Positions 1,983 through 64,000 of a DNA stretch of 64,000 bases are shown here, piece after piece (position 1 is the stretch's first letter; the number at the start of each line of letters is the position of its first letter). The notes beneath the pieces were generated by a model. It was not told the DNA's origin, ran no database searches, and worked only from the letters and a program-made list of their open reading frames with translations. A program made the translations under genes and the position numbers. The DNA lies in contig JAVEXP010000003.1 of NCBI GenBank assembly GCA_034003985.1, positions 58,643 through 122,642 on the forward strand. The letters run 5' to 3'. Source of the stretch: Patescibacteria group bacterium. Its GTDB lineage: Bacteria; Patescibacteriota; Patescibacteriia; Buchananbacterales; UBA6539.

Positions 1983-3388
1983 ACCAAAAAATAACCATCA
2001 ATCAAAAATTACCAACGGTGGTAATCGTTGGTCGGATCAATGTCGGCAAATCAACCCTGTTTAACCGATTAACGGAAACCAGCAAGGCAATTATTTCACC
2101 GATTGAGGGCACAACCCGCGACTACAATCTAGGACAAGTGGCCTGGCGCAAAAAAATCTTTAACTTGATCGACAGCGGCGGAGTTAATATTGATATTCTC
2201 CAAAATAGCATCGTCAATCTGATTAACGAAAAACCGCTCCAAAACCTTAAACCAAATATAATTGAACAAGAAATAATCAAACAAACCAAAACTGCGCTAG
2301 CCAAAGCTAATTTAATAATTATGGTCACCGACGGCAAAACCGGCGTATTGCCCGAAGACCGACAGTTGGCGATAACTTTAAAAAAAATGGCCAAGCCGGT
2401 GATTTTGGTGGTCAATAAAATTGATCGGCAATCTCAGGCCGCTAGTACCGCCGAATTTTTCAAACTGGGACTCGGCAAACCTTGGCCGGTATCGGCCGCC
2501 AGCGGCAGCCAAGTCGGCGACTTTTTGGACGAATTGGTAAAACAAATAAAATGGCCGCGGGGACGGCAACCCAATGTTAAGGATCAAACGGCAATAAAAG
2601 TGGCTTTAATCGGCAAACCAAATGTTGGCAAATCATCATTGGTCAATAAAATGTTAGGTGAAGAACGAGTAATTGTTTCACCGCTGGCACAAACCACCAG
2701 AGAACCTCAGGATACCGAAATTATTTTTGACAAACAACACATTATTATAATTGATACGGCCGGACTGAGAAAAAAAACCAAGGTGCACGAAACTTTGGAG
2801 AAAATCGCCACCAAAAAAACTCAAAGGATGATTGAACAAGCCGACATCGTTTTATTGGTGACCGAAGCCAACGAGCCGCTGGCTAAACAAGACGCTTACC
2901 TGGCCGGATTATTGAAAGACCAGGGAGTGGGAGTAATTGTTGTCGCCAACAAATGGGACTTAATTGCGAACAAGACTACCAACACCGACCAACAGGTAAA
3001 AAATTATTACCAGGGTGAATTTGCCTATTTAAGTTTTGCACCATTGATTTTCGTCTCCGCTCAAACCGGCAAAAATGTCGACAAAATTCTGCCGCTGATT
3101 TTGGAAGTAAATCAAGAAAGCACCAAAAAAGTAAGCCCCGAAGATCTGGAAAAATTGACAACCGCGTTAGTTAGACATCACCGCCCGGCCCAAGCCAAAG
3201 GCAACAGCCGACCAAAAATTTATGGCCTGACCCAAAGCGGCGTCAAACCACCGACTTTCACAATTACCGTTGGACCCAGACAAAGCCTCCACTTTTCTTA
3301 TATACGATTCATCGAAAATCAATTGCGCCACAACTTTGGCTTTAAGGGTATTCCTGTTAGAATAAGGACAAGAAGCCTAAAACAATAA
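1979..3388 (+). CDS. der: Ribosome-biogenesis GTPase Der (EngA), two tandem GTPase domains plus a KH-like domain
   Basis: The ATG overlaps the upstream TGA stop (ATGA). Two P-loops are present (GRINVGKSTLFN and GKPNVGKSSLVN), with DTAG and NKxD motifs in each domain. Confidence 0.9.
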   Translation: MNQKITINQKLPTVVIVGRINVGKSTLFNRLTETSKAIISPIEGTTRDYNLGQVAWRKKIFNLIDSGGVNIDILQNSIVNLINEKPLQNLKPNIIEQEIIKQTKTALAKANLIIMVTDGKTGVLPEDRQLAITLKKMAKPVILVVNKIDRQSQAASTAEFFKLGLGKPWPVSAASGSQVGDFLDELVKQIKWPRGRQPNVKDQTAIKVALIGKPNVGKSSLVNKMLGEERVIVSPLAQTTREPQDTEIIFDKQHIIIIDTAGLRKKTKVHETLEKIATKKTQRMIEQADIVLLVTEANEPLAKQDAYLAGLLKDQGVGVIVVANKWDLIANKTTNTDQQVKNYYQGEFAYLSFAPLIFVSAQTGKNVDKILPLILEVNQESTKKVSPEDLEKLTTALVRHHRPAQAKGNSRPKIYGLTQSGVKPPTFTITVGPRQSLHFSYIRFIENQLRHNFGFKGIPVRIRTRSLKQ

Positions 3389-3389
3389 T

Positions 3390-3959
3390 ATGAAGCTGAT
3401 CGCCGGATTGGGAAATCCCGGAACAAAATATGAAAACACCTGGCACAATGTCGGTTTTTTAATGATTGACGAATTACACAAAAATTATGCCGGGGTTGAG
3501 GCTGAATTTAAAAACAGCAAAAAATTCAAATCCTTGGTATACGAATGCAACCAAGTTGAAGATAAAATAATTCTGGCCAAACCTCAAACTTTCATGAATA
3601 ATTCCGGCCAAGCCGTCAGTATTTTAGCCGGCTTTTACAAGATAGCTAAAAATGACTTGTGGGTGATTCACGATGATATTGATTTACCGTTAGGAACAAT
3701 TCGCATTTCCCAAAATGCTTCGGCTGCTGGCCATCGCGGAGTCCAATCAATCATTGATCAACTAAACACTCAGGAATTTGTACGATTTCGAATTGGCATC
3801 AGACCAACAGACCTACGGCAACCGACCGAAGAGTATGTCTTGCAAAATATCAACAAGCAAGGTAAATTGGAAATCGAACAGGCTGCGAAATTACTGCTAG
3901 GAGCAATCGAAATAAGTTTAAGCCAGGGAATTTCGGAAGCCATGAACGAATTTAATTAA
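3390..3959 (+). CDS. pth: Peptidyl-tRNA hydrolase
   Basis: The N-terminus MKLIAGLGNPGTKYENTWHNVGF matches the Pth signature GLGNPG..Y..TRHN.GF. The 189-aa length is typical. Confidence 0.9.
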   Translation: MKLIAGLGNPGTKYENTWHNVGFLMIDELHKNYAGVEAEFKNSKKFKSLVYECNQVEDKIILAKPQTFMNNSGQAVSILAGFYKIAKNDLWVIHDDIDLPLGTIRISQNASAAGHRGVQSIIDQLNTQEFVRFRIGIRPTDLRQPTEEYVLQNINKQGKLEIEQAAKLLLGAIEISLSQGISEAMNEFN

Positions 3960-4011
3960 CTAAAAATTTTAAAAAACATAGCGCCAAACCAAAGGCGTTT
4001 TTTTATTAAAA

Positions 4012-10155: not shown

Positions 10156-11571
10156 CTACTGAATGGGAATGGTGAGGTGAGCCAACGGCTCTACCTCGTT
10201 GCCCGCGCCGTCGGTAAATACCGGCGGACGATTGATGCAGGGGACCTGCCCGCACATTTCGGCGACGGTGTCGGACTGCACCAAGAACAACTCCAGACGA
10301 ACCGCGTCCGAATCCGGCGCAAACGAGATGTCCCAGGTTCCACCGACAATCGGCGAGTAGGCCTCGTCGCCGAAGTTCGGCTTGGCGTAATACGCCTCGT
10401 AGGTTCCGCCGTCACCGTCCGGGTGCTGGGTTACCGAGAACAGCACCAGATCGGCGCAGTTGGCCAAGGACTCAAGGTCCGGGCCAAAAATAACGCCATG
10501 CGACTGCGTGCCGTCGACTTCCGTCGAGAATAAAGTGTACTCGTTGAGATACACCTGCTCGCACGGAAGCAGCTCTCCTTCGCCTTCTCCTTCGCCTTCG
10601 CCCTCACCGGACACATCTTCCTCAAACACGGCTCGCACGGTCTTGTCGCCATCCACGGTTAAGGTGGTAGGATTGGTGGTGCCGGAGACATCCCCCTCCC
10701 AGTGGTCAAAGCGCCAACCAAAGCCATGAATGGCCCAGACTTGCACTTCGGTGCCAGCAGAAAAGTCACACACATGGGCATAGCCACATGGTGCGGGGTC
10801 CGTGGATATTGATCCATCGCCAACGACTTCCTTGGTGACGGTAAAGGTTTGGGTCTCACCTTCGCCCTCACCGGACTCAACACCGGTGACGGTAACGCTC
10901 TGGGAGCCCAACTGGCCGCAGTCATTGCTGACCACGACATACCAAGTCTGAGCCTGGTTGGTAACCCCCACCGAGAGAGGACTGGCGTCTATCGGGCCGA
11001 GAGACAAACCATCTTCTACCCGCCGCCATGAATACATCAGCGTTGGCGTTCCAGTTGCCTCAACATCCAGCGTCACCGTTTCGCCGACCATGGCTTCAAC
11101 CGACTGAGGTTGAACCGTGATTTGTGGCGCTTCGCACTCACCTTCGCCCTCACCTTCCGAGGAACAAGGGCCGGTGGAAACCCAGATCTGAACGGTCACA
11201 CCCGCTTCCACCTCCTGGCCCTGCCCGGGAGAACAGGCAAAAACCACTCCCGGCGCGACATAGTCATGACATTCGTGGGTCACGCTCGTTTGGAAACCGA
11301 GCAGCTCCAACGAAGTCCGAGCCTGGGCTTCCGTCAGTCCCAGCAACACGGGCACCATCACGGCATCCGACTGCCCGGGGCAAAAGCCGTCTTCTGTGGC
11401 TTCGGTCGGGCAATAGTGATACCCGTCCGAGTTGAAGAACTGGATGACGCGCAACAGCTCCGAGAGTTCGATGCGGCTGTCCTCGTTGATATCCGCATCA
11501 TGAAACACCTGAGCCTGCGCCGGGGCCATCATGAAGACGGCCGTCATCACTGCCAAGAACAATTTTCTCAT
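10156..11571 (-). CDS. GC-rich secreted multi-domain surface protein: signal peptide, EF-hand/dockerin-like Ca-binding motif, PASTA domain, I-set Ig-like domain and InlB B-repeat domain, joined by (GE)n linkers
   Basis: A signal peptide MRKLFLAVMTAVFMMAPAQA is preceded by an AAAGGGAAAG RBS. The Ca-binding motif reads DADINEDSRIELSELLRVIQFF. The PASTA-like region reads LGLTEAQARTSLELLGFQTSV...VTVQIWVS. The Ig-like domain reads PQITVQPQSVEAMVGETVTLDVEATGTPTLMYSWRR...WYVVVSNDCGQLGS. The InlB-B-repeat-like domain reads GDGSISTDPAPCGYAHVCDFSAGTEVQVWAIHGFGWRFDHWEGDVSGTTNPTTLTVDGDKTVRAVF. SGEGEGEGEGEGE linkers join the domains. Codon usage is strongly GC3-biased, unlike neighbouring genes. Confidence 0.7.
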   Translation of the reverse strand: MRKLFLAVMTAVFMMAPAQAQVFHDADINEDSRIELSELLRVIQFFNSDGYHYCPTEATEDGFCPGQSDAVMVPVLLGLTEAQARTSLELLGFQTSVTHECHDYVAPGVVFACSPGQGQEVEAGVTVQIWVSTGPCSSEGEGEGECEAPQITVQPQSVEAMVGETVTLDVEATGTPTLMYSWRRVEDGLSLGPIDASPLSVGVTNQAQTWYVVVSNDCGQLGSQSVTVTGVESGEGEGETQTFTVTKEVVGDGSISTDPAPCGYAHVCDFSAGTEVQVWAIHGFGWRFDHWEGDVSGTTNPTTLTVDGDKTVRAVFEEDVSGEGEGEGEGEGELLPCEQVYLNEYTLFSTEVDGTQSHGVIFGPDLESLANCADLVLFSVTQHPDGDGGTYEAYYAKPNFGDEAYSPIVGGTWDISFAPDSDAVRLELFLVQSDTVAEMCGQVPCINRPPVFTDGAGNEVEPLAHLTIPIQ

Positions 11572-12296
11572 CGCACTTTCCCTTTTTGTTACTAACCAGA
11601 CCACCACGACAAACCCTATTGCCGCAACGGACTAGCCATTTCTGAATTGTATATGGGCACTAACCAAGCACTCCTAGAATTTAATTTCTAGGACTTAGTT
11701 AGAATCTTACTTTTTATCATAAAATCAATATTTTGTCAATAGCAAGCATTATAAATCACTAATTTTAGCAAATTTACTCCATAATAAAAGCGGCCGAAAG
11801 AGAGTTAAACCCCGAAACTTTGTTGATGCTAGGGTGCTCCTTTCGAGCCGCAAAATCATAATACCATAAAAATTGGCTGATACAAAAATAACGGGTCGTT
11901 GGCGATTTGCCGCTGACCCGTGATTTGACCTGTTGTCTCAGTTTTTTCCCGTTTTTAAAGCGGTGCGGGCGCCGCTTCTATTTTTTTGTCTGCACTCTAG
12001 GGCAATCAAGATGGGCAGATCTCTAGCCCATAGCGCAAACGCGGATAGCTTAGCGATCCGCTAAATCGCCAGGCAAATTAAGAGAGGCTCAAGCCTCTCC
12101 CCCGGGGCCGCCTGGCCCTCCCCGAGTTACTGGGTGCTCTTGTGCATGGACCCTCCTCCCTCATCAGTTGTTGAAAGCTTCACCAAAACCACAGCAATTA
12201 GCAGACTAACAAAAAACACCAACCAAGTCAATAATATTTACAGCTATGGTAAAGACGGCTAAGATAAAAGCAACCACACTAAACGGAGGAGTGCCA

Positions 12297-55647: not shown

Positions 55648-57132
55648 TCACTTGGTGGGCGGCACGGCCTTATTGGTGTTGAACCACTCATCGTGACTGG
55701 CGCGAAGATCTTGCGTCAGCCCGTCGATGTGGTCCGTTTGGGATCCCCAATTGCTTGGGTACCCAAGCCGGGAGCGAATGCGAGACTGGCGGGTCTCCAA
55801 GCGCCGAGACTGATCGGCACCCAGTTCGACTCGGTCGACCTTGACCAAGCGGCCATCTCGTTCACCCGTGAATTCCAGGTGTTCGAGCGGCAGCTGGATC
55901 TGCTTAGGCGCAACCGCGATCTGCCCGCTAGCCTTGGGGTCGACAACCGACACGAAGGTCAGCCAAACCCCGTCGTTCCAAGACTGTTGATAGGTTCCCG
56001 GGGGCAGGAACCAACCATCGGCTTGGGCCTTGGAAGTTTTGGCCTCTTCCTCGTCGTTGAGGCCGACCCAGTCCTTCCCCTTCTCCCAAAGGCCGAGGGG
56101 AGAAACAATGGACTTGTGAGCCGGTTTGGGATCGGGAATGGTTGGCGCGCTGCCGGGGTTGCGAAGGATGGAATAAACCATTCCAACGACTACGCCAAGC
56201 AGCAAAACAGCCAAGACCAGCCACAATTTTGGCCGGTGGTGAGTTGCCACCGTTCGGCCCTGATCATCCAGATTGACCAGAACCAGAGGTTCAGCGGTGC
56301 CACCAGGGCGATCATCTTCGCCCCAGAACTCTTCGGCGCTGGCACCACCGGTTCCCAACGGCTGGGGACCAAGGTCCGAAGCGTGCCCGAAGGGATCGGC
56401 CAAGGCTTCCTTGTCAGGATCACCTGACTCGCCTCCCCAGACATCATCGAAACGAGGGTGCGGTCCAGAGTCTCGCCCCAGGTCGGAATCAGAAAAGGGT
56501 GGAAGCGATTCAGGGCCATTATCCTGGTGGAGTTCACCATCACTTCCTTCGTCAAAAACCGGCAGCCCCTCTTCATCGGCATGGTCGACATCCTGGTTGG
56601 CATCACCAGGGTCGAGTGTCGGTTCAGGCCACAGAGAATCCGGATCTTCAGCCTCAACAGCTTCTTGTTGGCCTTCGGCTTGTTCCGAATCAGATCCCAA
56701 CCCTGCAAGCAGAGCATCCAAATCCTCTGGCGAAAGCGAAGTCGGTTCAAGGTCATCCTCCTGAGGCGGAGGGCCAGTTTCTTCATCAAGAACCGGCAAA
56801 CCCTCTTCGGCAGGTTCGACATCCTGGTTGGCATCACCAGGGCCGAGCGTCGGTTCGGGCTCGGGTGGTAGTGGGAGCGTGTCCCAAATCAGATAATTTG
56901 CCAGCACCTCGCTGTTGACATACGGCAAATTCTGAAAGGCCACATCTTTTTCCACCTCTTCAAAGACATAGCCCCAACCGTCATCTTGGAGTCCAGCGAC
57001 TTCTGTGGTAAAGATGTCGCCAAACCCCTGAGCAGCCAAGTAAGTTTTGATCTCCTCGTCGGATTTGAAACCGTCGAGAATCTCTCCCTTTCCGGCCGCC
57101 CGAAAAACCTCAATTACTTGTTGAGCCTGCAT
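55648..57132 (-). CDS. GC-rich hypothetical membrane protein: N-terminal cytosolic domain, tandem acidic Pro-rich repeats, one TM helix and a ~190-aa extracytoplasmic domain
   Basis: RBS AAGGAG overlaps the upstream gene's stop. The repeats read EPTLGPGDANQDVEPAEEGLPVLDEE and EPTLDPGDANQDVDHADEEGLPVFDEG. TM helix LWLVLAVLLLGVVVGMVYSIL. The terminator CCAGCCGC..GCGGCTGG+T-run lies at ~55575-55612. ~60% GC. Confidence 0.6.
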   Translation of the reverse strand: MQAQQVIEVFRAAGKGEILDGFKSDEEIKTYLAAQGFGDIFTTEVAGLQDDGWGYVFEEVEKDVAFQNLPYVNSEVLANYLIWDTLPLPPEPEPTLGPGDANQDVEPAEEGLPVLDEETGPPPQEDDLEPTSLSPEDLDALLAGLGSDSEQAEGQQEAVEAEDPDSLWPEPTLDPGDANQDVDHADEEGLPVFDEGSDGELHQDNGPESLPPFSDSDLGRDSGPHPRFDDVWGGESGDPDKEALADPFGHASDLGPQPLGTGGASAEEFWGEDDRPGGTAEPLVLVNLDDQGRTVATHHRPKLWLVLAVLLLGVVVGMVYSILRNPGSAPTIPDPKPAHKSIVSPLGLWEKGKDWVGLNDEEEAKTSKAQADGWFLPPGTYQQSWNDGVWLTFVSVVDPKASGQIAVAPKQIQLPLEHLEFTGERDGRLVKVDRVELGADQSRRLETRQSRIRSRLGYPSNWGSQTDHIDGLTQDLRASHDEWFNTNKAVPPTK

Positions 57133-57143
57133 GGTTCATCTCC

Positions 57144-58025
57144 TTATTCCGCGGCGCGGATTGTCAGGACAACGACTTGCTTGCTTGGGGCCAAGCCCGA
57201 CAAGCGAAACTGAACAGTGGCACTACCCTTGATGTGGGGTAGTTTTTCGGTTGGGACTTCTCGCCAACCTTCACCATTCAGATTCCAGCTCAGGCCACAG
57301 CTGTCGGCAAAACCCAGACTATACTGAATCTGTTCCCGAATGGCAAACGCCAGCTTGGGCGTTTCCTGTCCGGGTGCCACCTCCACGGCCCACTTTTCCA
57401 GGACTTGCGACTCCTCTTTGGGAACTGCTTCCCAGCGCGGAGCCTGATTCTCGAGAGGTTCGTTACTGACGGCATCACGGGCCAACCAGCACAAGCTCTC
57501 TTCCTTGTAGGGTGGGAGCGCAACCCAACAGTAGGTCGTCAGATCGCCGGGGAATGTCCGCGATGCCCCGGGATAGTAGCGAACTACATCGCCGGGCTTA
57601 GCGATCTTTCCCTCAATCGGATTGTGGCGATCATCATAGACCACCGCGGCCGAGACTACCGCTCGGACCGAGTAATTGGCAATCCGGTCACCAATCTCAC
57701 CCGCGTCCAAGTTGACCCGGCTGACCTCGTGGTCGACCAGAGCGGCTTCGCGGTCCAGTTGGCTGTTGGCCAACTGCTGACGCGAGCCTCGGTAGTGTTC
57801 GACAATGGCACGAGCCTCGGGCGAGGTTGCGGCCAGCTTGTCGAGCTCGTCATTGCGGACTTGCTCAACGCTGGTCTGCTTGCCCCAGCCCGCATAGCTC
57901 TTGTACCAAGGCCAGGCTTTCGGCAAAACCAGAAACGCGCCGATCACCACCGCGATCCAAAATACCGACACCAAGAAATTCCATGTCCGTGCCTTCGCTT
58001 CAACGCTCATGACGCTTTCCTCCAC
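57144..58025 (-). CDS. GC-rich hypothetical single-pass membrane protein (293 aa)
   Basis: RBS GGTGGAGGAAAG is followed by ATG. N-terminal TM FLVSVFWIAVVIGAFLVLP. Translationally coupled to the downstream 494-aa gene (stop inside the next RBS). Confidence 0.55.
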   Translation of the reverse strand: MEESVMSVEAKARTWNFLVSVFWIAVVIGAFLVLPKAWPWYKSYAGWGKQTSVEQVRNDELDKLAATSPEARAIVEHYRGSRQQLANSQLDREAALVDHEVSRVNLDAGEIGDRIANYSVRAVVSAAVVYDDRHNPIEGKIAKPGDVVRYYPGASRTFPGDLTTYCWVALPPYKEESLCWLARDAVSNEPLENQAPRWEAVPKEESQVLEKWAVEVAPGQETPKLAFAIREQIQYSLGFADSCGLSWNLNGEGWREVPTEKLPHIKGSATVQFRLSGLAPSKQVVVLTIRAAE

Positions 58026-58329: not shown

Positions 58330-60162
58330 TTACTTTTTTTCACCCTCTTTACCACGGCGATCCTTGTCGCCTCCCCGTTGCTCGCCCTTGCCGCGATCTC
58401 CTCGGTCGCCCTTGCCACCACCACGGTCATCCCGCGGTTTAGTGCTGCGATCACCGGACTGCGGACGAGGACGGTCGGTGCGGGGACGCTGCTGGCCTTC
58501 GGCGCGTGGTGGAGTTGGATCACTCAATCCAGCCAATCCTCGGTAAGTTGCCATCAGACTGACAAGGTCAGTCTGGGCACCACCCGGAGTGGTCACCACC
58601 GTCAGGTTGCCAGTCTTACTGGCAATAGTCCCGGCCGCGTCAACTGCCAAGATTTCATGCCCGCCAGGCGAATTGATTGCCTTGGCGCGCTCGCTGATTG
58701 AGTACGCCTGCGCGTCAGCGAGAATCATTGTCGCCTTGGCGTCGCCAGTGGCTTCGTTGGCCTTGGCCGCGGCTTTGGCCAAAGCGGCCTTGGCATCCTG
58801 CACTGACCGGGCCAGCGATGTATTGCTGGGTTCCAGATCCGTAACCTGGGCATCGTAGAGAAGAAAACCGAATTTCTCCATGATTACCGCGGCCGGTGAT
58901 TCCGCCGGAAACGAATCGACCAGAACAATGTTTCGGCCTTGCATTTCCAAGCGGGGACGAATCGGCCGGGTATCCTGATCGTGGTTGACCGTCGGACTGT
59001 ACCCGTCAAACGGCGGAGCCACCAACTTCAGCTTCCAGGCCAAAACGCGATGGGCCTGAAGCTGGATAATCGGATTGAGTTCCAAAGCCCCGAACTCGTT
59101 CTTGGCCTTCTTCTTACTCCTGGCCTTGGCCGAGTCGGCGGCATTAGCCCCAGCTTCGCTGCCAGCATCCTCTTCCGCTTCGTCGGTCTCGTCGACATCC
59201 CGTTTGGCAAAATAGCGCAACGATGCGACCACCTGGCGCCAGCGCGCCAAAATGATGTTGCGCGTCGCTTCAATCGGGAAGTCGGCGCCAAACACTGCCA
59301 GATAAGGATCCCAAACCACCGCTCGGAGGAACAAGTCCGCCGAAATGTCGATTGGGTCAGCGGTGCCCGAATCAGGCACTACGCCGCCGGCTTTGATTTC
59401 GCGCAGCCAGTTCCAGGTGCGCTCGGTGAGGTCGAGGTAACGAACCGGCTGCTTACTGGCACTTTGGACATCGCTGTCCTTTTCATACCAAGGCGGTGCC
59501 ATCTTGTAGCGCCACGGCCAAACCGTAACGCCAAGAAAGTATAGGCCCTTACCCGGAGGTAACAGCACATACCGATCCTTGGTTTGCATCTGGGCGTTGC
59601 GAAGCCTTACCAACAGCTGGTAATGCTTGCGTTTTTCCGGGTCGCTGGTATTGATAATGATCTTCCAGATACCCTTGTCGCCCATGATAAAAGCGGCACG
59701 GTTTTCCGGGACCATCACCCACCACCAGCCCAGTTCGCCCATCGGCCGCAGCATCGGCTGGCTGCTGAAAAACACCAACAGTCCGCCGACCAAGCCAAAG
59801 CCAATCAAAGCGAGCGGGCCAAATGGGTAGTCAAACGACGAGACACCCACCAAACCCAAAACGATGAGGAAAAGACCGCCGAAGACAAAGGCAAAGTACT
59901 GCCAAAAGTCTCGGCGATAGCCGTCCAACTCGTGCCAGATTTCTTCCTCGCCAGGGTTGACCTTGCGCGAAAGACTCTTGCGCTCCACCGACCAGGCGCC
60001 AGTCAGAATGCCGGCAATGCAGATGCCGCCAGCCAGCGCCAGGCTGCCAAACGGCTGCGGGGTGAACAAAAACAACGCCACCGCAATAATCAGGGTTGCC
60101 ACCAGTTTGGCAACCAGGTTGCCGCTCTTGCTAGCAACCTTCTCATCAGACTTATTAGCCAT
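58330..60162 (-). CDS. GC-rich SPFH/band-7 (flotillin-like) membrane protein with two N-terminal TM hairpins and a C-terminal Ala-rich coiled coil plus an RGD-rich disordered tail
   Basis: Consensus RBS AAGGAGG 7 nt before ATG (revcomp 60160-60162). The SPFH-like core reads VMVPENRAAFIMGDKGIWK...YFLGVTVWPW...ISADLFLRAVVWDPYLAVFGADFPIEATRNIILARWRQVVASL (cf. YqiK IVPQGEVGVVTRFG...VDAVVYYRVTDP...LAQTTLRSVIG). The tail is RPRTDRPRPQSGDRSTKPRDDRGGGKGDRGDRGKGEQRGGDKDRRGKEGEKK. The terminator GGCGGGCA..TGCCCGCC+T7 lies at 58264-58300. Confidence 0.6.
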   Translation of the reverse strand: MANKSDEKVASKSGNLVAKLVATLIIAVALFLFTPQPFGSLALAGGICIAGILTGAWSVERKSLSRKVNPGEEEIWHELDGYRRDFWQYFAFVFGGLFLIVLGLVGVSSFDYPFGPLALIGFGLVGGLLVFFSSQPMLRPMGELGWWWVMVPENRAAFIMGDKGIWKIIINTSDPEKRKHYQLLVRLRNAQMQTKDRYVLLPPGKGLYFLGVTVWPWRYKMAPPWYEKDSDVQSASKQPVRYLDLTERTWNWLREIKAGGVVPDSGTADPIDISADLFLRAVVWDPYLAVFGADFPIEATRNIILARWRQVVASLRYFAKRDVDETDEAEEDAGSEAGANAADSAKARSKKKAKNEFGALELNPIIQLQAHRVLAWKLKLVAPPFDGYSPTVNHDQDTRPIRPRLEMQGRNIVLVDSFPAESPAAVIMEKFGFLLYDAQVTDLEPSNTSLARSVQDAKAALAKAAAKANEATGDAKATMILADAQAYSISERAKAINSPGGHEILAVDAAGTIASKTGNLTVVTTPGGAQTDLVSLMATYRGLAGLSDPTPPRAEGQQRPRTDRPRPQSGDRSTKPRDDRGGGKGDRGDRGKGEQRGGDKDRRGKEGEKK

Positions 60163-60288
60163 GCGAGTTCCTCCTTGCCTGTCAGCAGACAGGCGGGTTG
60201 ATTCAAATCGGTCGAACCGAATTTCCTTCCAGTTAAATTGCCAATGATCTATACAAACACCCATTGAATCACAATGAGGTGATTTTAT

Positions 60289-60317
60289 ATCATACCAAAA
60301 TTCTAATATTTTGTCAA
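60289..60317 (-). promoter_or_regulatory. Consensus sigma70 promoter (TTGACA-17-TATGAT) driving the SPFH gene
   Basis: Minus-strand sequence CTATTGACAAAATATTAGAATTTTGGTATGATATAAAA. The first 16 nt are identical to the promoter of the 10.2-11.6 kb GC-rich gene (11717-11739). Confidence 0.55.
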
Positions 60318-60394
60318 TAGAAAATCTAAAATTAAATAAAAACAACCCCCTAGCTAAGAGGGAGCAGATATCTGTTAATTAATTTTACACGATA

Positions 60395-60816: not shown

Positions 60817-61620
60817 TTAGTGCCGGCGCAGTGTCAAACCTTTAAACCGGACAAAAATCATGACCAAACTGACAATAATTAGCCCGGTGCTGAAAACAAT
60901 CGGCCAGCGCACGCCAAAAAATAACGGTGTTTGGTCCAGCCGTAAAATCTCCATCAAAATCCGAATAATGGAATAATTAATCAAATAGATAAATAGCAGG
61001 ACGCCGGATTTTAGTTTTAATTTTTGATAGATGAAAAGCAGGATTAAAAAATTAAGCAAATTCAAAATTGATTCATATAAAAAAGTCGGATGAAAATAGT
61101 GATGACTTAAATATTCCAACGGCCGATTGGCCAAATCAATGGGAATACCCCAGGACAAATCAGTTGGCCGGCCAAACAATTCCTGATTAAAATAATTGCC
61201 AAAGCGGCCAATCGCCTGGCCCAAGGGCAAGGCCACAACCAACAAATCAGCCAAAATCCAAAAATTCAAACCCTTGGTCCAACAATAAATAACCAAAGTA
61301 AAAACAGCGCCAATAATCGCTCCGTGAATGGCCAAGCCGCCGTGCCAAACGGCAAAAATTTCAAAAGGATGCGACTGATAAAAACGCAAATCCAAAAAAA
61401 CAGCGTAAATCCTGGCACCCAGCAAACTGGCAAGCAGCAAATAAAAACCAAAATCATAAATTTGATCACGGCTGATTTTCTGGTTTTTTGCCAACTTTAA
61501 AACAACCAACAGACCGGCGATTATTCCCAACACAATAAACAAACCATACCAATGAATTTTTAAAAAACCGAATTGGAATAAAATTGAATTGGGCTGAAAA
61601 TGATGCAAAAAATTTATCAT
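60817..61620 (-). CDS. lgt: Prolipoprotein diacylglyceryl transferase
   Basis: HWYGLFIVLGIIAG near the N-terminus and the Lgt signature GRFGNYFNQELFGRPT. The ORF-track start at 61731 is extended; MINFLHH at 61620 is the likely start. Confidence 0.8.
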   Translation of the reverse strand: MINFLHHFQPNSILFQFGFLKIHWYGLFIVLGIIAGLLVVLKLAKNQKISRDQIYDFGFYLLLASLLGARIYAVFLDLRFYQSHPFEIFAVWHGGLAIHGAIIGAVFTLVIYCWTKGLNFWILADLLVVALPLGQAIGRFGNYFNQELFGRPTDLSWGIPIDLANRPLEYLSHHYFHPTFLYESILNLLNFLILLFIYQKLKLKSGVLLFIYLINYSIIRILMEILRLDQTPLFFGVRWPIVFSTGLIIVSLVMIFVRFKGLTLRRH

Positions 61621-61720
61621 ATTTTCAGTATAACATGTTTTAAAGATAAAAAAATAAGGGGGAGACCGGAAGTGACTTTTCACTCCGGCTCCCCCGAGAC
61701 TGCTTGGAAATCGCGACGGG

Positions 61721-61906
61721 TTACGCCGCAACCAACTTGCGGGCGCGATGTCCGCATTTCACCTTGCTCGAGGTAAAGCGCCCATCATGAGCCTCGGCCG
61801 CAGCGCGGCGTTGGAGATTGCGGACCTCGGGTTTGGTGGTGGCGGTGGCGGTTTTGGAAATTGTCTTTCCCGACTCGTCGACGATGTTCCAGCGGACTTC
61901 AACCAT
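61721..61906 (-). CDS. Small GC-rich hypothetical protein (61 aa)
   Basis: RBS GGGAGAG before ATG. Product MVEVRWNIVDESGKTISKTATATTKPEVRNLQRRAAAEAHDGRFTSSKVKCGHRARKLVAA. A long imperfect hairpin terminator lies at 61656-61700. ~62% GC. Confidence 0.45.
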   Translation of the reverse strand: MVEVRWNIVDESGKTISKTATATTKPEVRNLQRRAAAEAHDGRFTSSKVKCGHRARKLVAA

Positions 61907-62155
61907 GATCTTCTCTCCCGTTTTGAACCTGAGTTAATGTAATGACAGAATGATTCAGACGCTCAGCGTTCAAACGGCGGATCGTGCGATTTTGCCGACA
62001 TGGCAACCCTCCTTATGGTTTTGTTTCTCCTGCCAAGGCAGCCCAGTCAGCACTGTGGACTACCTATATAAAATACACCATACCAAAAATTGACCTTAAT
62101 GTCAAGGTTAACTAAAAAACGGCGGCTGATTCCGCCTGTTTTTTAGTTAGAATAA

Positions 62156-64000
62156 TTATTGCTTGCGGCGAAGTTTCTTTTCCTGTTCCAAGACTTCCAA
62201 AGTGGTTTTAACAATCGTATCGGGATTAAGCGACATACTGTCAATCCCCTGACTGACCAAGAACTTGGCCAAATCGGGAAAGTCGGACGGCGCCTGGCCG
62301 CAGATGCCGATTTTGCGTTTGGCCTTTTTGGCAATCTTGATTACTTGAGCCAGCATTTTTTTGACCGCTTCATCGCGCTCATCATAAACATTAGCCACCA
62401 ACGAAGAATCACGGTCAACCCCCAAGACCAGTTGGGTCAAATCATTGGAGCCAATCGAAAAACCGTCAAAAATCTCAGCGAATTTTTCGGCCAAAATCAC
62501 ATTGGAAGGAATTTCACACATCACATAAATTTCCAAACCATCCTCGCCCTGCTTGAGACCGGCTTGATTGATTACCTTAATCACCTTGCGGCCTTCTTCG
62601 ACAGTGCGACAAAATGGCACCATCATTTTAACATTCTTCAAACCAAATACATCCCGGGCTTTTTTGAAGCCCTGACATTCCAGCATAAACGCTTCTTGAT
62701 ATTGCGGCGCGTAATAGCGAGAAGCGCCGCGCCAACCAATCATCGGATTGGATTCGATCGGTTCAAATTCAGTGCCACCGATCAAATTGGCATATTCGTT
62801 TGATTTAAAGTCAGACAAACGGAAAATCACATCCTTGGGATAAAAGGCTGATGCCAACTGACCGATGCCTTCGGCCAACTTGTCAACAAAATACTGACCT
62901 TTGTTTTTGTAACCAACGGTTAGTTTGGCGATTTGTTTTTTGGCGCGCTTGTCTTTCAGTTTGTCAAAATGAAGCAGCGCCAAAGGATGAATCTTAATCT
63001 GATTGGCAATAATAAATTCTTCACGGGCCAAACCGACACCATCGTTGGGAATAAACGAAGACGCAAAAGCGATGTCGGGTTGACCGATATTCATCATAAT
63101 TTTGGTTTTCGGCCGCTTGATCTGGCGAACATTGGTCTTTTTGACTTCAAACGGCAGTAAACCATCATAAACATAGCCGGTTTCACCTTCAGCGCAAGAA
63201 ATGGTCACTTTTTGCCCCGGCTTGATTTTTTTGGTCGCCTCCACCGTGCCGACAATACAAGGAATACCAAGCTCGCGGCTGACAATGGCCGCATGGCAAG
63301 TCCGGCCGCCCTTGTTGGTAATAATCCCGGCGGCAATCTTCATAATCGGCTCCCAGTCGGGATCGGTCATGTCGGTCACCAGAATCTGGCCGGCCACAAA
63401 CCGTTCAATTGCCTTGGGGCTTTTAATAATATTGGCTACGCCGTTGGCAATTTTATTGCCGACCGACGGACCCTGAACAATCACCGTCCCGCGTTTGGCC
63501 AGCTTATATTCTTCTAAAACACTCAAATTCTTAGCGGCGTGAACGGTTTCGGGACGAGCTTGAAGAATGAAAAGTTTTTTGGTTTTACCGTCCTTGGCCC
63601 ACTCAATATCCATCGGCCGCTGATAATGCTTTTCAATCAGCACTCCCCATTCGGCCAATTGCAAAATTTCTTTGTCTGTTAAAACATATTTTTGCTGTTC
63701 AGCTACGGTCGTTCGGACATCCTTGACCGGTTGACGATTGGCGGCTTTGGCATCATAAATCATCTTGATTTTTTTACTGCCAAGTTTTCTGTTAATAATT
63801 GGTTTATAGCCCTGACTTAAAGTTTCTTTAAAAACATAAAACTCGTCGGGGTTAACTTTGCCCTGAACGACATTTTCCCCCAGCCCCCAAGAACCATTGA
63901 TCAGCAGCGCGCCGCGAAAACCACTTTCGGTGTCAATCGTGAACATCACCCCGGAACAAGCCTTGTCGGAACGAACCATCAATTGAACGCCGACGGACAA
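62156..64000 (-). CDS. ppsA: Phosphoenolpyruvate synthase (pyruvate, water dikinase), C-terminal ~614 aa; the N-terminus lies beyond the right window edge
   Basis: Phosphohistidine swivel domain GGRTCHAAIVSRELGIPCIVG and C-terminal PEP-utilising TIM barrel (..MCEIPSNV.., GICGQAPSD). The bidirectional terminator GGCGG-aatcag-CCGCC with flanking T-runs lies at 62115-62147. Confidence 0.85.
   Translation of the reverse strand: MSVGVQLMVRSDKACSGVMFTIDTESGFRGALLINGSWGLGENVVQGKVNPDEFYVFKETLSQGYKPIINRKLGSKKIKMIYDAKAANRQPVKDVRTTVAEQQKYVLTDKEILQLAEWGVLIEKHYQRPMDIEWAKDGKTKKLFILQARPETVHAAKNLSVLEEYKLAKRGTVIVQGPSVGNKIANGVANIIKSPKAIERFVAGQILVTDMTDPDWEPIMKIAAGIITNKGGRTCHAAIVSRELGIPCIVGTVEATKKIKPGQKVTISCAEGETGYVYDGLLPFEVKKTNVRQIKRPKTKIMMNIGQPDIAFASSFIPNDGVGLAREEFIIANQIKIHPLALLHFDKLKDKRAKKQIAKLTVGYKNKGQYFVDKLAEGIGQLASAFYPKDVIFRLSDFKSNEYANLIGGTEFEPIESNPMIGWRGASRYYAPQYQEAFMLECQGFKKARDVFGLKNVKMMVPFCRTVEEGRKVIKVINQAGLKQGEDGLEIYVMCEIPSNVILAEKFAEIFDGFSIGSNDLTQLVLGVDRDSSLVANVYDERDEAVKKMLAQVIKIAKKAKRKIGICGQAPSDFPDLAKFLVSQGIDSMSLNPDTIVKTTLEVLEQEKKLRRKQ

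Follow-up and report, generated by a model that had tools for sequence, protein, structure and literature searches.

What is encoded by the short GC-rich cassette that lies between ppsA and lgt in a 64-kb stretch of DNA from an uncultured member of the Patescibacteria, and how is its expression controlled? The cassette occupies positions 61647-62105 on the minus strand of this stretch (hereafter the window, to which all coordinates refer; WIN denotes the window's own locus). It is flanked by a gene for a phosphoenolpyruvate-synthase-like protein (ppsA) and by lgt, and it contains a short upstream open reading frame (uORF) followed by a gene for a protein of 61 amino acids (aa). An original prediction, made from the letters of the sequence, had regarded this arrangement as reminiscent of attenuation or toxin-like modules and its composition as foreign. 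In our analysis the cassette proves to be a vertically inherited, monocistronic unit, and it appears rather likely that ribosome-mediated translational attenuation through a RAPP-like leader peptide controls expression of the 61-aa protein.

The RAPP-like arrest peptides described so far are long secreted monitoring substrates which were mined from annotated proteomes; uORFs of 10-13 codons that lack annotation are not reached by mining of this kind. The locus suggests that the stalling chemistry of this class may have been compressed into some 12 codons, in a leader combined with a covarying helix which masks a Shine-Dalgarno (SD) sequence. As a construct of leader, helix and reporter it is compact, with about 200 nt. 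Gene regulation in its uncultured patescibacterial hosts is almost wholly uncharted.

A conserved His/Arg-x-Pro-Pro motif in the leader uORF

The uORF, MSAKSHDPPFER, comprises 12 codons from the ATG at 62001 to the TGA at 61963 (61963-62001, minus strand). Its SD sequence AAGGAGGG (62007-62014) includes AGGAGG at 62013-62008 with a spacing of 6 nt to the ATG. The uORF is located directly upstream of the 61-aa gene (61721-61906) in the same orientation, 56 nt separate its stop codon from the main ATG, and no other short uORF of this kind occurs in the 64-kb window. Codons 6-9 of the 12 specify His-Asp-Pro-Pro (61986-61975), with the first proline, Pro8, at 61980-61978.

Since direct sequence searches gave nothing further, syntenic loci were fetched via Lgt from species-representative genomes, Joint Genome Institute (JGI) metagenomes and a protein-contig index. 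These loci from related genomes and metagenomes, which were compared with WIN, are designated by L-numbers. Counting WIN and L002 as one, eight lineages carry the motif [H/R]-[G/D/S]-P-P in a uORF at this position, while the remaining uORF residues vary. HDPP is found in WIN, in L002 (MSAKSHDPPFGR; 38 of 39 nt identical to the window) and in L085 (MVFHNGHDPPLF), and HGPP in L084 (MFSACEHGPPLS), L004 (MGNLEHGPPRVES) and L170 (MEMREHGPPRF). HSPP occurs in L086, in a peptide of 24 residues beginning MLKFHEHSPPELV, and in L174 (MKDRHNHSPP), where the stop codon follows immediately. L104 has RGPP in a uORF of at least 40 residues (MTTRGPPIRK at its start). Apart from those of L086 and L104, the leader peptides are 10-13 residues long. 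The uORFs of the relatives are preceded by (A/G)GGAGGUGA located 4-7 nt before a TTG start, and the uORF start precedes the main ATG by 87-95 nt in seven lineages, L174 having a longer interval of 111 nt.

The His residue is encoded by CAC or CAU, the third position of the Pro codons is variable (CCG/CCU/CCA/CCC), and in the alignment of the upstream region the uORF is better conserved than the downstream protein. The pattern [HR][AGSD]PP has no instance in the 18,192 aa of the window's long ORFs. With [R/Q/H]-[A/G, partly S/D]-P-P near the C-terminus of an upstream ORF that is co-oriented with the main gene, the leaders thus have the form of RAPP-like arrest peptides. By inspection they contain no hydrophobic segment, and so lack the localisation signal of monitoring substrates.

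Variant leaders without Pro-Pro and with a strong SD are found at the same position in two further loci, namely MRCLHCHSG in L169 (472-501) and MFITIHNKHPSV in L171 (244-282), both followed by a stop codon. Judged by eye, ACCAUCAGG of the main SD in L169 would have a pairing partner in an anti-SD sequence, CCUGAUGGU, about 9 nt past the uORF stop codon. Such variants point to a switch architecture that evolves around a changing stall or termination site.

A covarying helix between the uORF and the main Shine-Dalgarno sequence

Inverted-repeat search, minimum-free-energy (MFE) folding and duplex analysis all revealed a helix that joins the 3' half of the uORF to the ribosome-binding site (RBS) of the 61-aa gene. 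Its 5' arm (61962-61981, minus strand) consists of the last nucleotide of the Asp codon, Pro-Pro, Phe-Glu-Arg, the stop codon and one further nucleotide. The 3' arm (61913-61933), with CUCAGGUUCAAAACGG at 61933-61918, overlaps the main SD GGGAGAG at 61919-61913. The stretch from the second Pro codon to the stop codon (61977-61962) pairs with 61933-61918, and beyond a 2x2 internal loop two more pairs are formed, U61981-A61914 and C61980-G61915. In total, nucleotides -8 to -22 before the main ATG are paired; CGG has a pairing probability of 0.99-1.0, the GA at -9/-8 (61915-61914) one of 0.63-0.79. The main SD is therefore predicted to be largely sequestered in the free mRNA. Separate MFE folds of WIN, L002, L084, L085 and L086 likewise pair the Pro-Pro codons with positions -8 to -14.

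Alignment-free duplex, swap and per-position analyses were used for comparison between lineages, since the covariance-model alignment is not in structural register. In the duplex test, the 18-nt Pro-Pro region was hybridised with the 22 nt before the main ATG and compared with all windows in its own locus. In L084, L085, L086 and L170 this duplex ranks first or among the top 0.04% (background fraction at most 0.0004); the background fraction is 0.022 in WIN, and L002 falls within the best 9%. In the swap test, the combination of each 5' arm with its own SD was the single best of 120 permutations for five lineages, and the own pairing was again the single best of 5040 permutations for seven. 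Anchored on the codons, positions 6-13 past the first Pro nucleotide each show 2-4 standard pair types, which are Watson-Crick pairs and, at two positions, also G-U. The helix is thus supported by covariation, with compensatory changes at eight positions. When 64 sources were scanned with a covariance model of the leader, no additional copies came to light.

Proposed translational attenuation and its alternatives

From these elements the following mechanism can be proposed. The promoter would drive an mRNA with a 5' stem-loop, the 12-codon uORF, the 61-aa gene and an intrinsic terminator. In the free mRNA the main SD and the 14 nt upstream of it would be paired with the 3' half of the uORF, from Pro-Pro through the stop codon. 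The uORF would be initiated efficiently owing to its near-perfect SD, and a ribosome would be held with Pro8 in the P site. Counted from this Pro codon, the 5' arm occupies positions 0 to +13, and the SD side occupies positions -8 to -22 before the main ATG; as the stalled ribosome would shield about 13-15 nt beyond the P site, the 5' arm would lie entirely within its footprint. Covering of this arm would free the main SD for initiation on the 61-aa ORF, and the dwell time on the Pro-Pro codons would set the output. This dwell time could depend on elongation factor P (EF-P) or ABCF factors, on the supply of prolyl-tRNA, or on a small molecule.

The attenuation suggested by the original prediction has thus turned out right in direction, with a leader and a small protein, although control would be translational rather than transcriptional. 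No terminator-like site was found between 61963 and 61906, and the helix is followed by GGGAGAGAAGAUCAUG and not by a U-tract, which argues against transcription attenuation. A transcription attenuator of the trp/his type, which would need a U-tract and alternative hairpins (terminator and antiterminator) between the uORF and the main ORF, was considered and rejected.

The main rival is plain SD masking with passive coupling, in which passage or termination of ribosomes on the uORF opens the hairpin in the absence of any arrest, and Pro-Pro is kept as an anti-SD sequence. CCG CCG and CCU CCU are indeed complementary to the SD cores CGG(A/G)GG and AGGAGG, L169 has its anti-SD just past a uORF devoid of Pro-Pro, and the corresponding motif in L171 is HPS, so that the architecture can evidently work without Pro-Pro. 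Passive coupling does not account for the His or Arg two codons before the first Pro, which is located outside the helix and yet, with synonymous codon variation, is kept in all 8 of the 8 lineages that have the motif. Nor does it explain why the middle residue is always small (G, D, S), as in the published RAPP-like rule, or why L104 carries RGPP, the strongest known staller. We regard this explanation as unlikely.

Alternatively, the leader might represent an ordinary polyproline pause that senses EF-P activity or prolyl-tRNA and not an EF-P-refractory arrest of the RAPP type. Asp-Pro-Pro is reportedly a strong EF-P-dependent XPP context, as work by Peil in 2013 and Starosta in 2014 is said to have indicated. 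The absence of EF-P in vitro may also explain why some di-proline RQH peptides stall better there than in vivo (Fujiwara 2024, PMC10987492). But generic EF-P motifs do not show a specifically conserved His/Arg at position -2, and RAPP arrests are not rescued by EF-P in PURE systems; a plain pause sensor therefore seems improbable to us.

Several points weigh against attenuation by a RAPP-like arrest and have to be set beside the evidence for it. The arrest is predicted from the motif alone. RAPP-like motifs depend on upstream context and on the species (PMC10951233, PMC7897499, PMC10987492, PMC12992588), and the window leader offers just a 7-residue N-terminal context, with 5 residues before His. 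L003, L169, L171 and L173 have no HxPP motif. SD masking was found in 5-6 of 9 lineages; the duplex of Pro-Pro region and SD is not above background in L004, L104 and L174. In L004 the RBS is masked by another hairpin, which begins at the last codons of the uORF, and in L104 the uORF overlaps the main start. The covariance-model alignment, which mixes registers, is paired at 58% compared with 53% for shuffles, and a slide of -1 is equally good. Because Pro-Pro codons (CCNCC) are inherently complementary to GGNGG, an anti-SD constraint at the RNA level could be responsible for some of the pairing and some of the Pro-Pro conservation. Finally, the approximately eight lineages come from one clade and are not phylogenetically independent cases.

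If attenuation by a RAPP-like leader is accepted, a more specific reading can be considered. A peptide of 10-13 residues cannot leave the exit tunnel, and release dependent on force, of the kind known from Sec/YidC monitoring substrates, is thereby excluded. It is conceivable, albeit doubtful, that this tunnel-contained His/Arg-x-Pro-Pro peptide senses the state of the peptidyl-transferase centre and switches on a small basic protein acting on ribosomes or nucleic acids. The inputs could be the rescue capacity of EF-P or ABCF factors, the supply of prolyl-tRNA, or a small molecule. If true, this would represent a translation-stress circuit specific to the candidate phyla radiation (CPR)/Patescibacteria, whose ribosomes and sets of translation factors are reduced. 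It would also be the first natural RAPP-like mini-leader and the first arrest-peptide circuit described in the phylum.

Comparison with known arrest peptides and attenuators

The literature on RAPP-like and RQH peptides used here comprises Sakiyama 2021 (PMC7897499), Fujiwara 2024 (PMC10987492), Morici 2024 (PMC10951233) and an EMBO J paper of 2025 (PMC12992588). According to these papers, RxPP, R/HxPP and HGPP are strong stallers in genetic selections, proteomes show a strong avoidance of RAPP and RGPP, and HGPP too is under-represented in them. Natural arrest peptides of the RQH family have R/Q/H-A/G-P-P including HAPP and HGPP, and an exchange of H for A in an HAPP peptide compromises the arrest. 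RGPP is the strongest motif, RDPP and RSPP are partly permissive, and RAPP arrests are refractory to EF-P in vitro (PMC10951233, PMC7897499, PMC10987492, PMC12992588).

The leaders described above share with ApdA, ApdP and uDF_RQH a core motif located close to the C-terminal end of a co-oriented upstream ORF, L104 having RGPP itself. His is a documented functional variant, and Gly, Asp and Ser are on record as being tolerated at the middle position. In contrast, the known members are secreted or membrane-bound monitoring substrates of about 60-300 aa which are released by a pulling force, whereas most of the present leaders have 10-13 residues and no signal sequence. Most known members precede sec/yidC, TonB or copper genes, whereas the target here is a basic, cytosolic-looking protein of 61-79 aa; moreover, the hosts are Patescibacteria and the arrest is a prediction from sequence.

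In secM-secA the stall disrupts an SD-sequestering stem-loop, while no SD-masking hairpin is predicted for ApdA, ApdP and ApcA (PMC10951233, PMC7897499, PMC10987492, PMC12992588). A RAPP-like motif that occurs together with a clear SD-masking helix therefore departs from the published pattern. With secM-secA and mifM-yidC2 the locus shares a downstream SD held in a stem-loop whose 5' arm is located under or adjoining the stalled ribosome; length, signal dependence and target genes differ. From this comparison, the leader would fit the sequence definition of RAPP-like peptides and the architecture of an SD-unmasking attenuator, but not the localisation-signal and target-gene features.

In size, the leader resembles another group of attenuators. 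ErmCL, ErmBL, CatA86L and CmlAL are leaders of 8-19 codons with a strong RBS, in which a stall at about codons 5-10 remodels a hairpin masking the SD. Regulation is purely translational, and the stalls, which depend on the presence of an antibiotic in the tunnel, govern resistance genes. The present leader differs by its intrinsic R/HxPP motif and a target that is not a resistance gene. The Salmonella leaders mgtP (mgtCBR) and mgtL (mgtA) are also short ORFs with consecutive Pro codons, at which the speed of translation selects alternative RNA structures. These enterobacterial leaders act mainly via transcription attenuation, and we know of no conserved His/Arg-x-Pro-Pro signature in them.

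The same tetrapeptide as in L004, L084 and L170, HGPP, also emerged from the selections of the Buskirk laboratory (Tanner 2009 and Woolstenhulme 2013, as cited in later papers); these stallers are artificial sequences in E. coli with an activity reported to depend on the seven preceding residues, in which they differ from the leaders studied here. Among the papers listed by the library searches bearing on this point, none dealt with leader or arrest peptides of Patescibacteria or with natural mini-uORFs that carry a RAPP-like motif.

Coding status and strand of the cassette

The comparison with L002, a 3-kb contig with the same order of ppsA, ORF and lgt, shows on which strand the cassette is read. 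At a DNA identity of about 93%, the 61-aa frame differs in 9 synonymous and 3 non-synonymous codons, and 10 of the 13 substitutions are located at third codon positions. For the antisense ORF of 64 aa on the plus strand (61748-61942) the same comparison gives 2 synonymous and 10 non-synonymous differences. The idea that a plus-strand gene spans the region has little beyond this open frame in its favour; the remaining plus frames hold stop codons, a promoter scan found no promoter on the plus strand, and we give such a gene practically no chance. The absence of a convincing plus-strand gene and the conservation of both minus-strand ORFs in related genomes agree with what the original prediction implied.

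A second alternative is that the GC-rich segment represents a structured non-coding RNA, either an sRNA or a cis-regulatory element, with incidental ORFs. In its favour are the intergenic GC excess in an AT-rich genome and the fold of region 61645-62075, which has a z-score relative to shuffled sequences of -5.4 for the plus-strand transcript and -2.2 for the minus-strand mRNA. With an E-value limit of 1, the Rfam 15 covariance-model scan gave just two sub-threshold matches at chance level (E 0.45 and 0.62), neither of them within the cassette, and ARAGORN detected no tRNA or tmRNA in the cassette region. The substitutions against L002 show a period of three in one open frame, the G-U and compensatory changes suit the minus-strand mRNA only, and the protein has significant homology to that of L174 and to its family despite unalignable DNA. 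The non-coding reading is largely refuted by these data and very improbable. The codon-substitution pattern, the G-U and compensatory changes valid only on this strand, and the lack of Rfam, tRNA and tmRNA matches show that the cassette is a minus-strand protein-coding transcription unit.

Within the 61-aa ORF, an inverted repeat of 11 nt joins 61819-61829 with 61746-61756, with 10 of 11 positions paired. The pairing is kept in L002 by two wobbles (C-G to U-G and U-A to U-G), which are valid on the minus-strand RNA only. As both changes are synonymous third-position changes, this repeat may be an mRNA structure or a coincidence.

The small basic protein and its family

The 61-aa protein (predicted isoelectric point (pI) 10.6) is an orphan in standard searches. 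A word-index search of 5.8 billion clustered proteins found one relative only, the protein of L002 with 95% identity, and an exhaustive HMMER scan of 1.8 billion representatives gave the same single relative. A second match was dismissed as a repeat-protein artefact driven by 'TATATT'. Against Pfam, NCBIfam, PADLOC, PHROGs and PDB sequences there was no significant match, and an initial guess of kinship to YegP/DUF1508 found no support in the Pfam search.

Among the relatives, five small proteins (L003, L084, L085, L086, L104) form a family with BLAST E-values from 1e-6 to 1e-26. Hidden Markov models (HMMs) built from 4-5 of these members did not detect the window protein, and a profile search of the large protein database with four members returned only those four. 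The link is provided by the 74-aa protein of L174 (Ca. Buchananbacteria, GCA_013359225.1), which was located through synteny. In a database of 16,446 ORFs, phmmer matches it to the window protein at E 1e-6, and the HMM of the other members detects it at E 3e-6. An HMM of eight members recovers all of them; its E-value of 1e-15 for the window protein is circular, since that protein is part of the model. Through the L174 bridge, sequence comparison places the window protein in a family of small basic proteins (61-79 aa) from Patescibacteria which is new to annotation and whose members are orphans to standard searches. For the small ORFs of L004, L087, L169, L170, L171 and L173 no link to the family was established; an alternative frame of L004 with 'GSFKVR' is suggestive only.

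AlphaFold2 models were obtained for the window protein (strands E2-10, E15-22 and E44-51, helix H25-39; predicted local distance difference test score (pLDDT) 71) and for P0124 of L084 (E2-7, E13-18, H21-34, E38-42; pLDDT 72). With moderate confidence, given the shallow alignments, both are predicted to share a beta-beta-alpha-beta core followed by a disordered basic tail. Foldseek searches of the models against PDB and BFVD gave nothing significant. From the basic tail, we infer that the 61-aa protein is possibly a nucleic-acid- or ribosome-binding factor. The C-termini of several members and neighbours are non-polar and end in -AA or -AL (KLVAA, VCSAA, ACSAL and VRRAA; window 61721-61735, L004, L084, L085). 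By analogy to ssrA-like degrons, these ends may hint at short-lived proteins.

Vertical inheritance and genomic context

The original prediction ascribed a foreign composition to the cassette, matching that of other islands in the window, and likened it to toxin modules. Such a horizontally acquired toxin-like or defence mini-cassette might be suspected from the atypical GC content (61-aa ORF 0.60, with 0.69 at third codon positions (GC3); lgt 0.38, ppsA 0.46), from the small size of the ORF and from its orphan status in the searches above. The genomic context contradicts this. In L002-L004, L083-L087, L170, L173 and L174 ppsA, a small gene and lgt follow each other in this order on the same strand, and almost all relatives have one or two small unannotated ORFs (58-130 aa) between ppsA and lgt, each with a hairpin terminator. 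In some of them an extra DUF559 or FabA-like gene is inserted. The closest organisms, whose Lgt is 55-67% identical, include several metagenome-assembled genomes labelled Candidatus Buchananbacteria or Patescibacteria, and some records have other labels. Between WIN and L002 the cassette is 92-97% identical, ppsA 92% and lgt 87.5%; with a divergence resembling that of the flanking genes, the cassette has diverged together with the genome.

Furthermore, the small gene is richer in GC than lgt by 5-20 points in 10 of 11 lineages, with a pI of 8.9-12. High GC is common to the gene in nearly all lineages and is thus a trait of this gene and not evidence of transfer, as is the island-like look of the locus. 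No blastn match to the cassette was found in phages and plasmids, tblastn detected no relative in viral contigs, and PADLOC and PHROGs gave no significant match. The protein is basic and soluble-looking, with neither a hydrophobic segment nor a partner gene by inspection, and the unit is monocistronic. The unit is inherited vertically; the claims of a foreign island and of a toxin-like module were not borne out, and we consider an acquired cassette of this kind highly improbable.

Large GC-rich ORFs occur elsewhere on the minus strand of the window (10156-11607, 55648-57132, 57144-58025 and 58330-60345), with GC contents of 0.56-0.59 compared with 0.38-0.47 for their neighbours. One of them encodes PASTA and Ig-like domains, another matches SPFH/Band_7 weakly, and for the other two Pfam gave no match. 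In relatives, the corresponding place downstream of lgt and a T4SS_pilin-like gene is likewise occupied by unannotated ORFs comparable in size, and these GC-rich "islands" may therefore be clade-wide and not recent imports.

A gene for a DUF559/MTES_1575 endonuclease-like protein is located variably between the small gene and lgt (L003 3436-3786, L083 3046-3384, L084 1953-2291, L085 3050-3388, L087 3032-3379, L172 218-463) and is absent from the window. Its variable presence suggests a hotspot for selfish insertions. A second unannotated family of small proteins (66-86 aa), also absent from the window, is encoded between ppsA and the HxPP uORF in some relatives (L083 2393-2641, L084 1300-1548, L085 2370-2630, L173 2230-2430). 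The members of L083/L084 and L085 are 43% identical (E 7e-20), and that of L173 was assigned by eye. In these relatives the leader is consequently internal to an operon. In L003, a GC-rich unit about 60 nt long with GGGGAGAGGG / CCCCCTCACCCG motifs is present in about three copies (counted by eye) at 3790-3995, directly upstream of lgt in an otherwise AT-rich intergenic region.

Structure of the transcription unit

The promoter, the uORF with its strong SD, the 61-aa ORF, the terminator and the lgt start were all found on the minus strand, as predicted. Upstream, the unit is bounded by the bidirectional intrinsic terminator of ppsA (62121-62136; stop codon of ppsA at 62156), which was identified by a terminator scan and by an inverted repeat flanked by A/T arms. 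Just past this terminator begins a sigma-70-type promoter on the minus strand (62077-62105) with the -35 hexamer TTGACA at 62105-62100, a 17-nt spacer and the -10 hexamer TATGGT at 62082-62077. It matches the consensus at 10 of 12 positions and has an extended -10 TG at 62085-62084 (TGgTATGGT, 62085-62077), and both hexamers are identical in L002. The presumed operator-like palindrome at the -35 region does exist as TTGAC-N6-GTCAA. Its 5-bp arms are below the limits of the repeat finder (6-nt seed, 8-nt minimum), L002 has GCCAA in place of the second arm, and the palindrome was not seen in the only other promoter inspected (L004), so that the operator function is unsupported.

Transcription is predicted to start at about 62070. 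Approximately 6 nt further downstream begins a stem-loop of 8 bp, GGUAGUCC...GGGCUGCC (62037-62064, minus strand), found in the MFE fold. Its arms read GGCAAUCC and GGAUUGUC in L002, where 8 of 8 pairs are retained: one has changed on both sides, from G-C to A-U, and three others differ on one side by way of G-U pairs. These G-U pairs are valid on the minus-strand RNA only and again favour a minus-strand transcript. The structure is probably an mRNA-stabilising 5' hairpin.

At the other end of the unit, the intrinsic terminator (61647-61695, minus strand) has a stem of 16 bp at 61695-61658 with two 1-nt bulges and an AAAG loop, with a U-run (UUAUUUUUUU; UUAUUUUUUUAU) 3' of the stem. A simple terminator scan overlooked this hairpin owing to its bulges, and the MFE fold shows it. 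The sole change in L002 is on a bulged base, and terminators consisting of a hairpin and a T-run are also present 3' of the small gene in L003, L004, L084-L086, L170 and L174.

The ATG at 61620 opens lgt, whose product matches PF01790. An extended -10 element TGtTATACT (61627-61635, minus strand) ends 6 nt before this ATG, and the region upstream of lgt in the window contains no SD sequence. With the element so close to the start codon and no SD, lgt is probably transcribed separately as a leaderless mRNA. The same arrangement of TGnTAnAnT, 6-11 nt and ATG also precedes lgt or DUF559 genes in L004 (about 3985-4003), L170 (about 2975-3003) and L085 (upstream of 3050).

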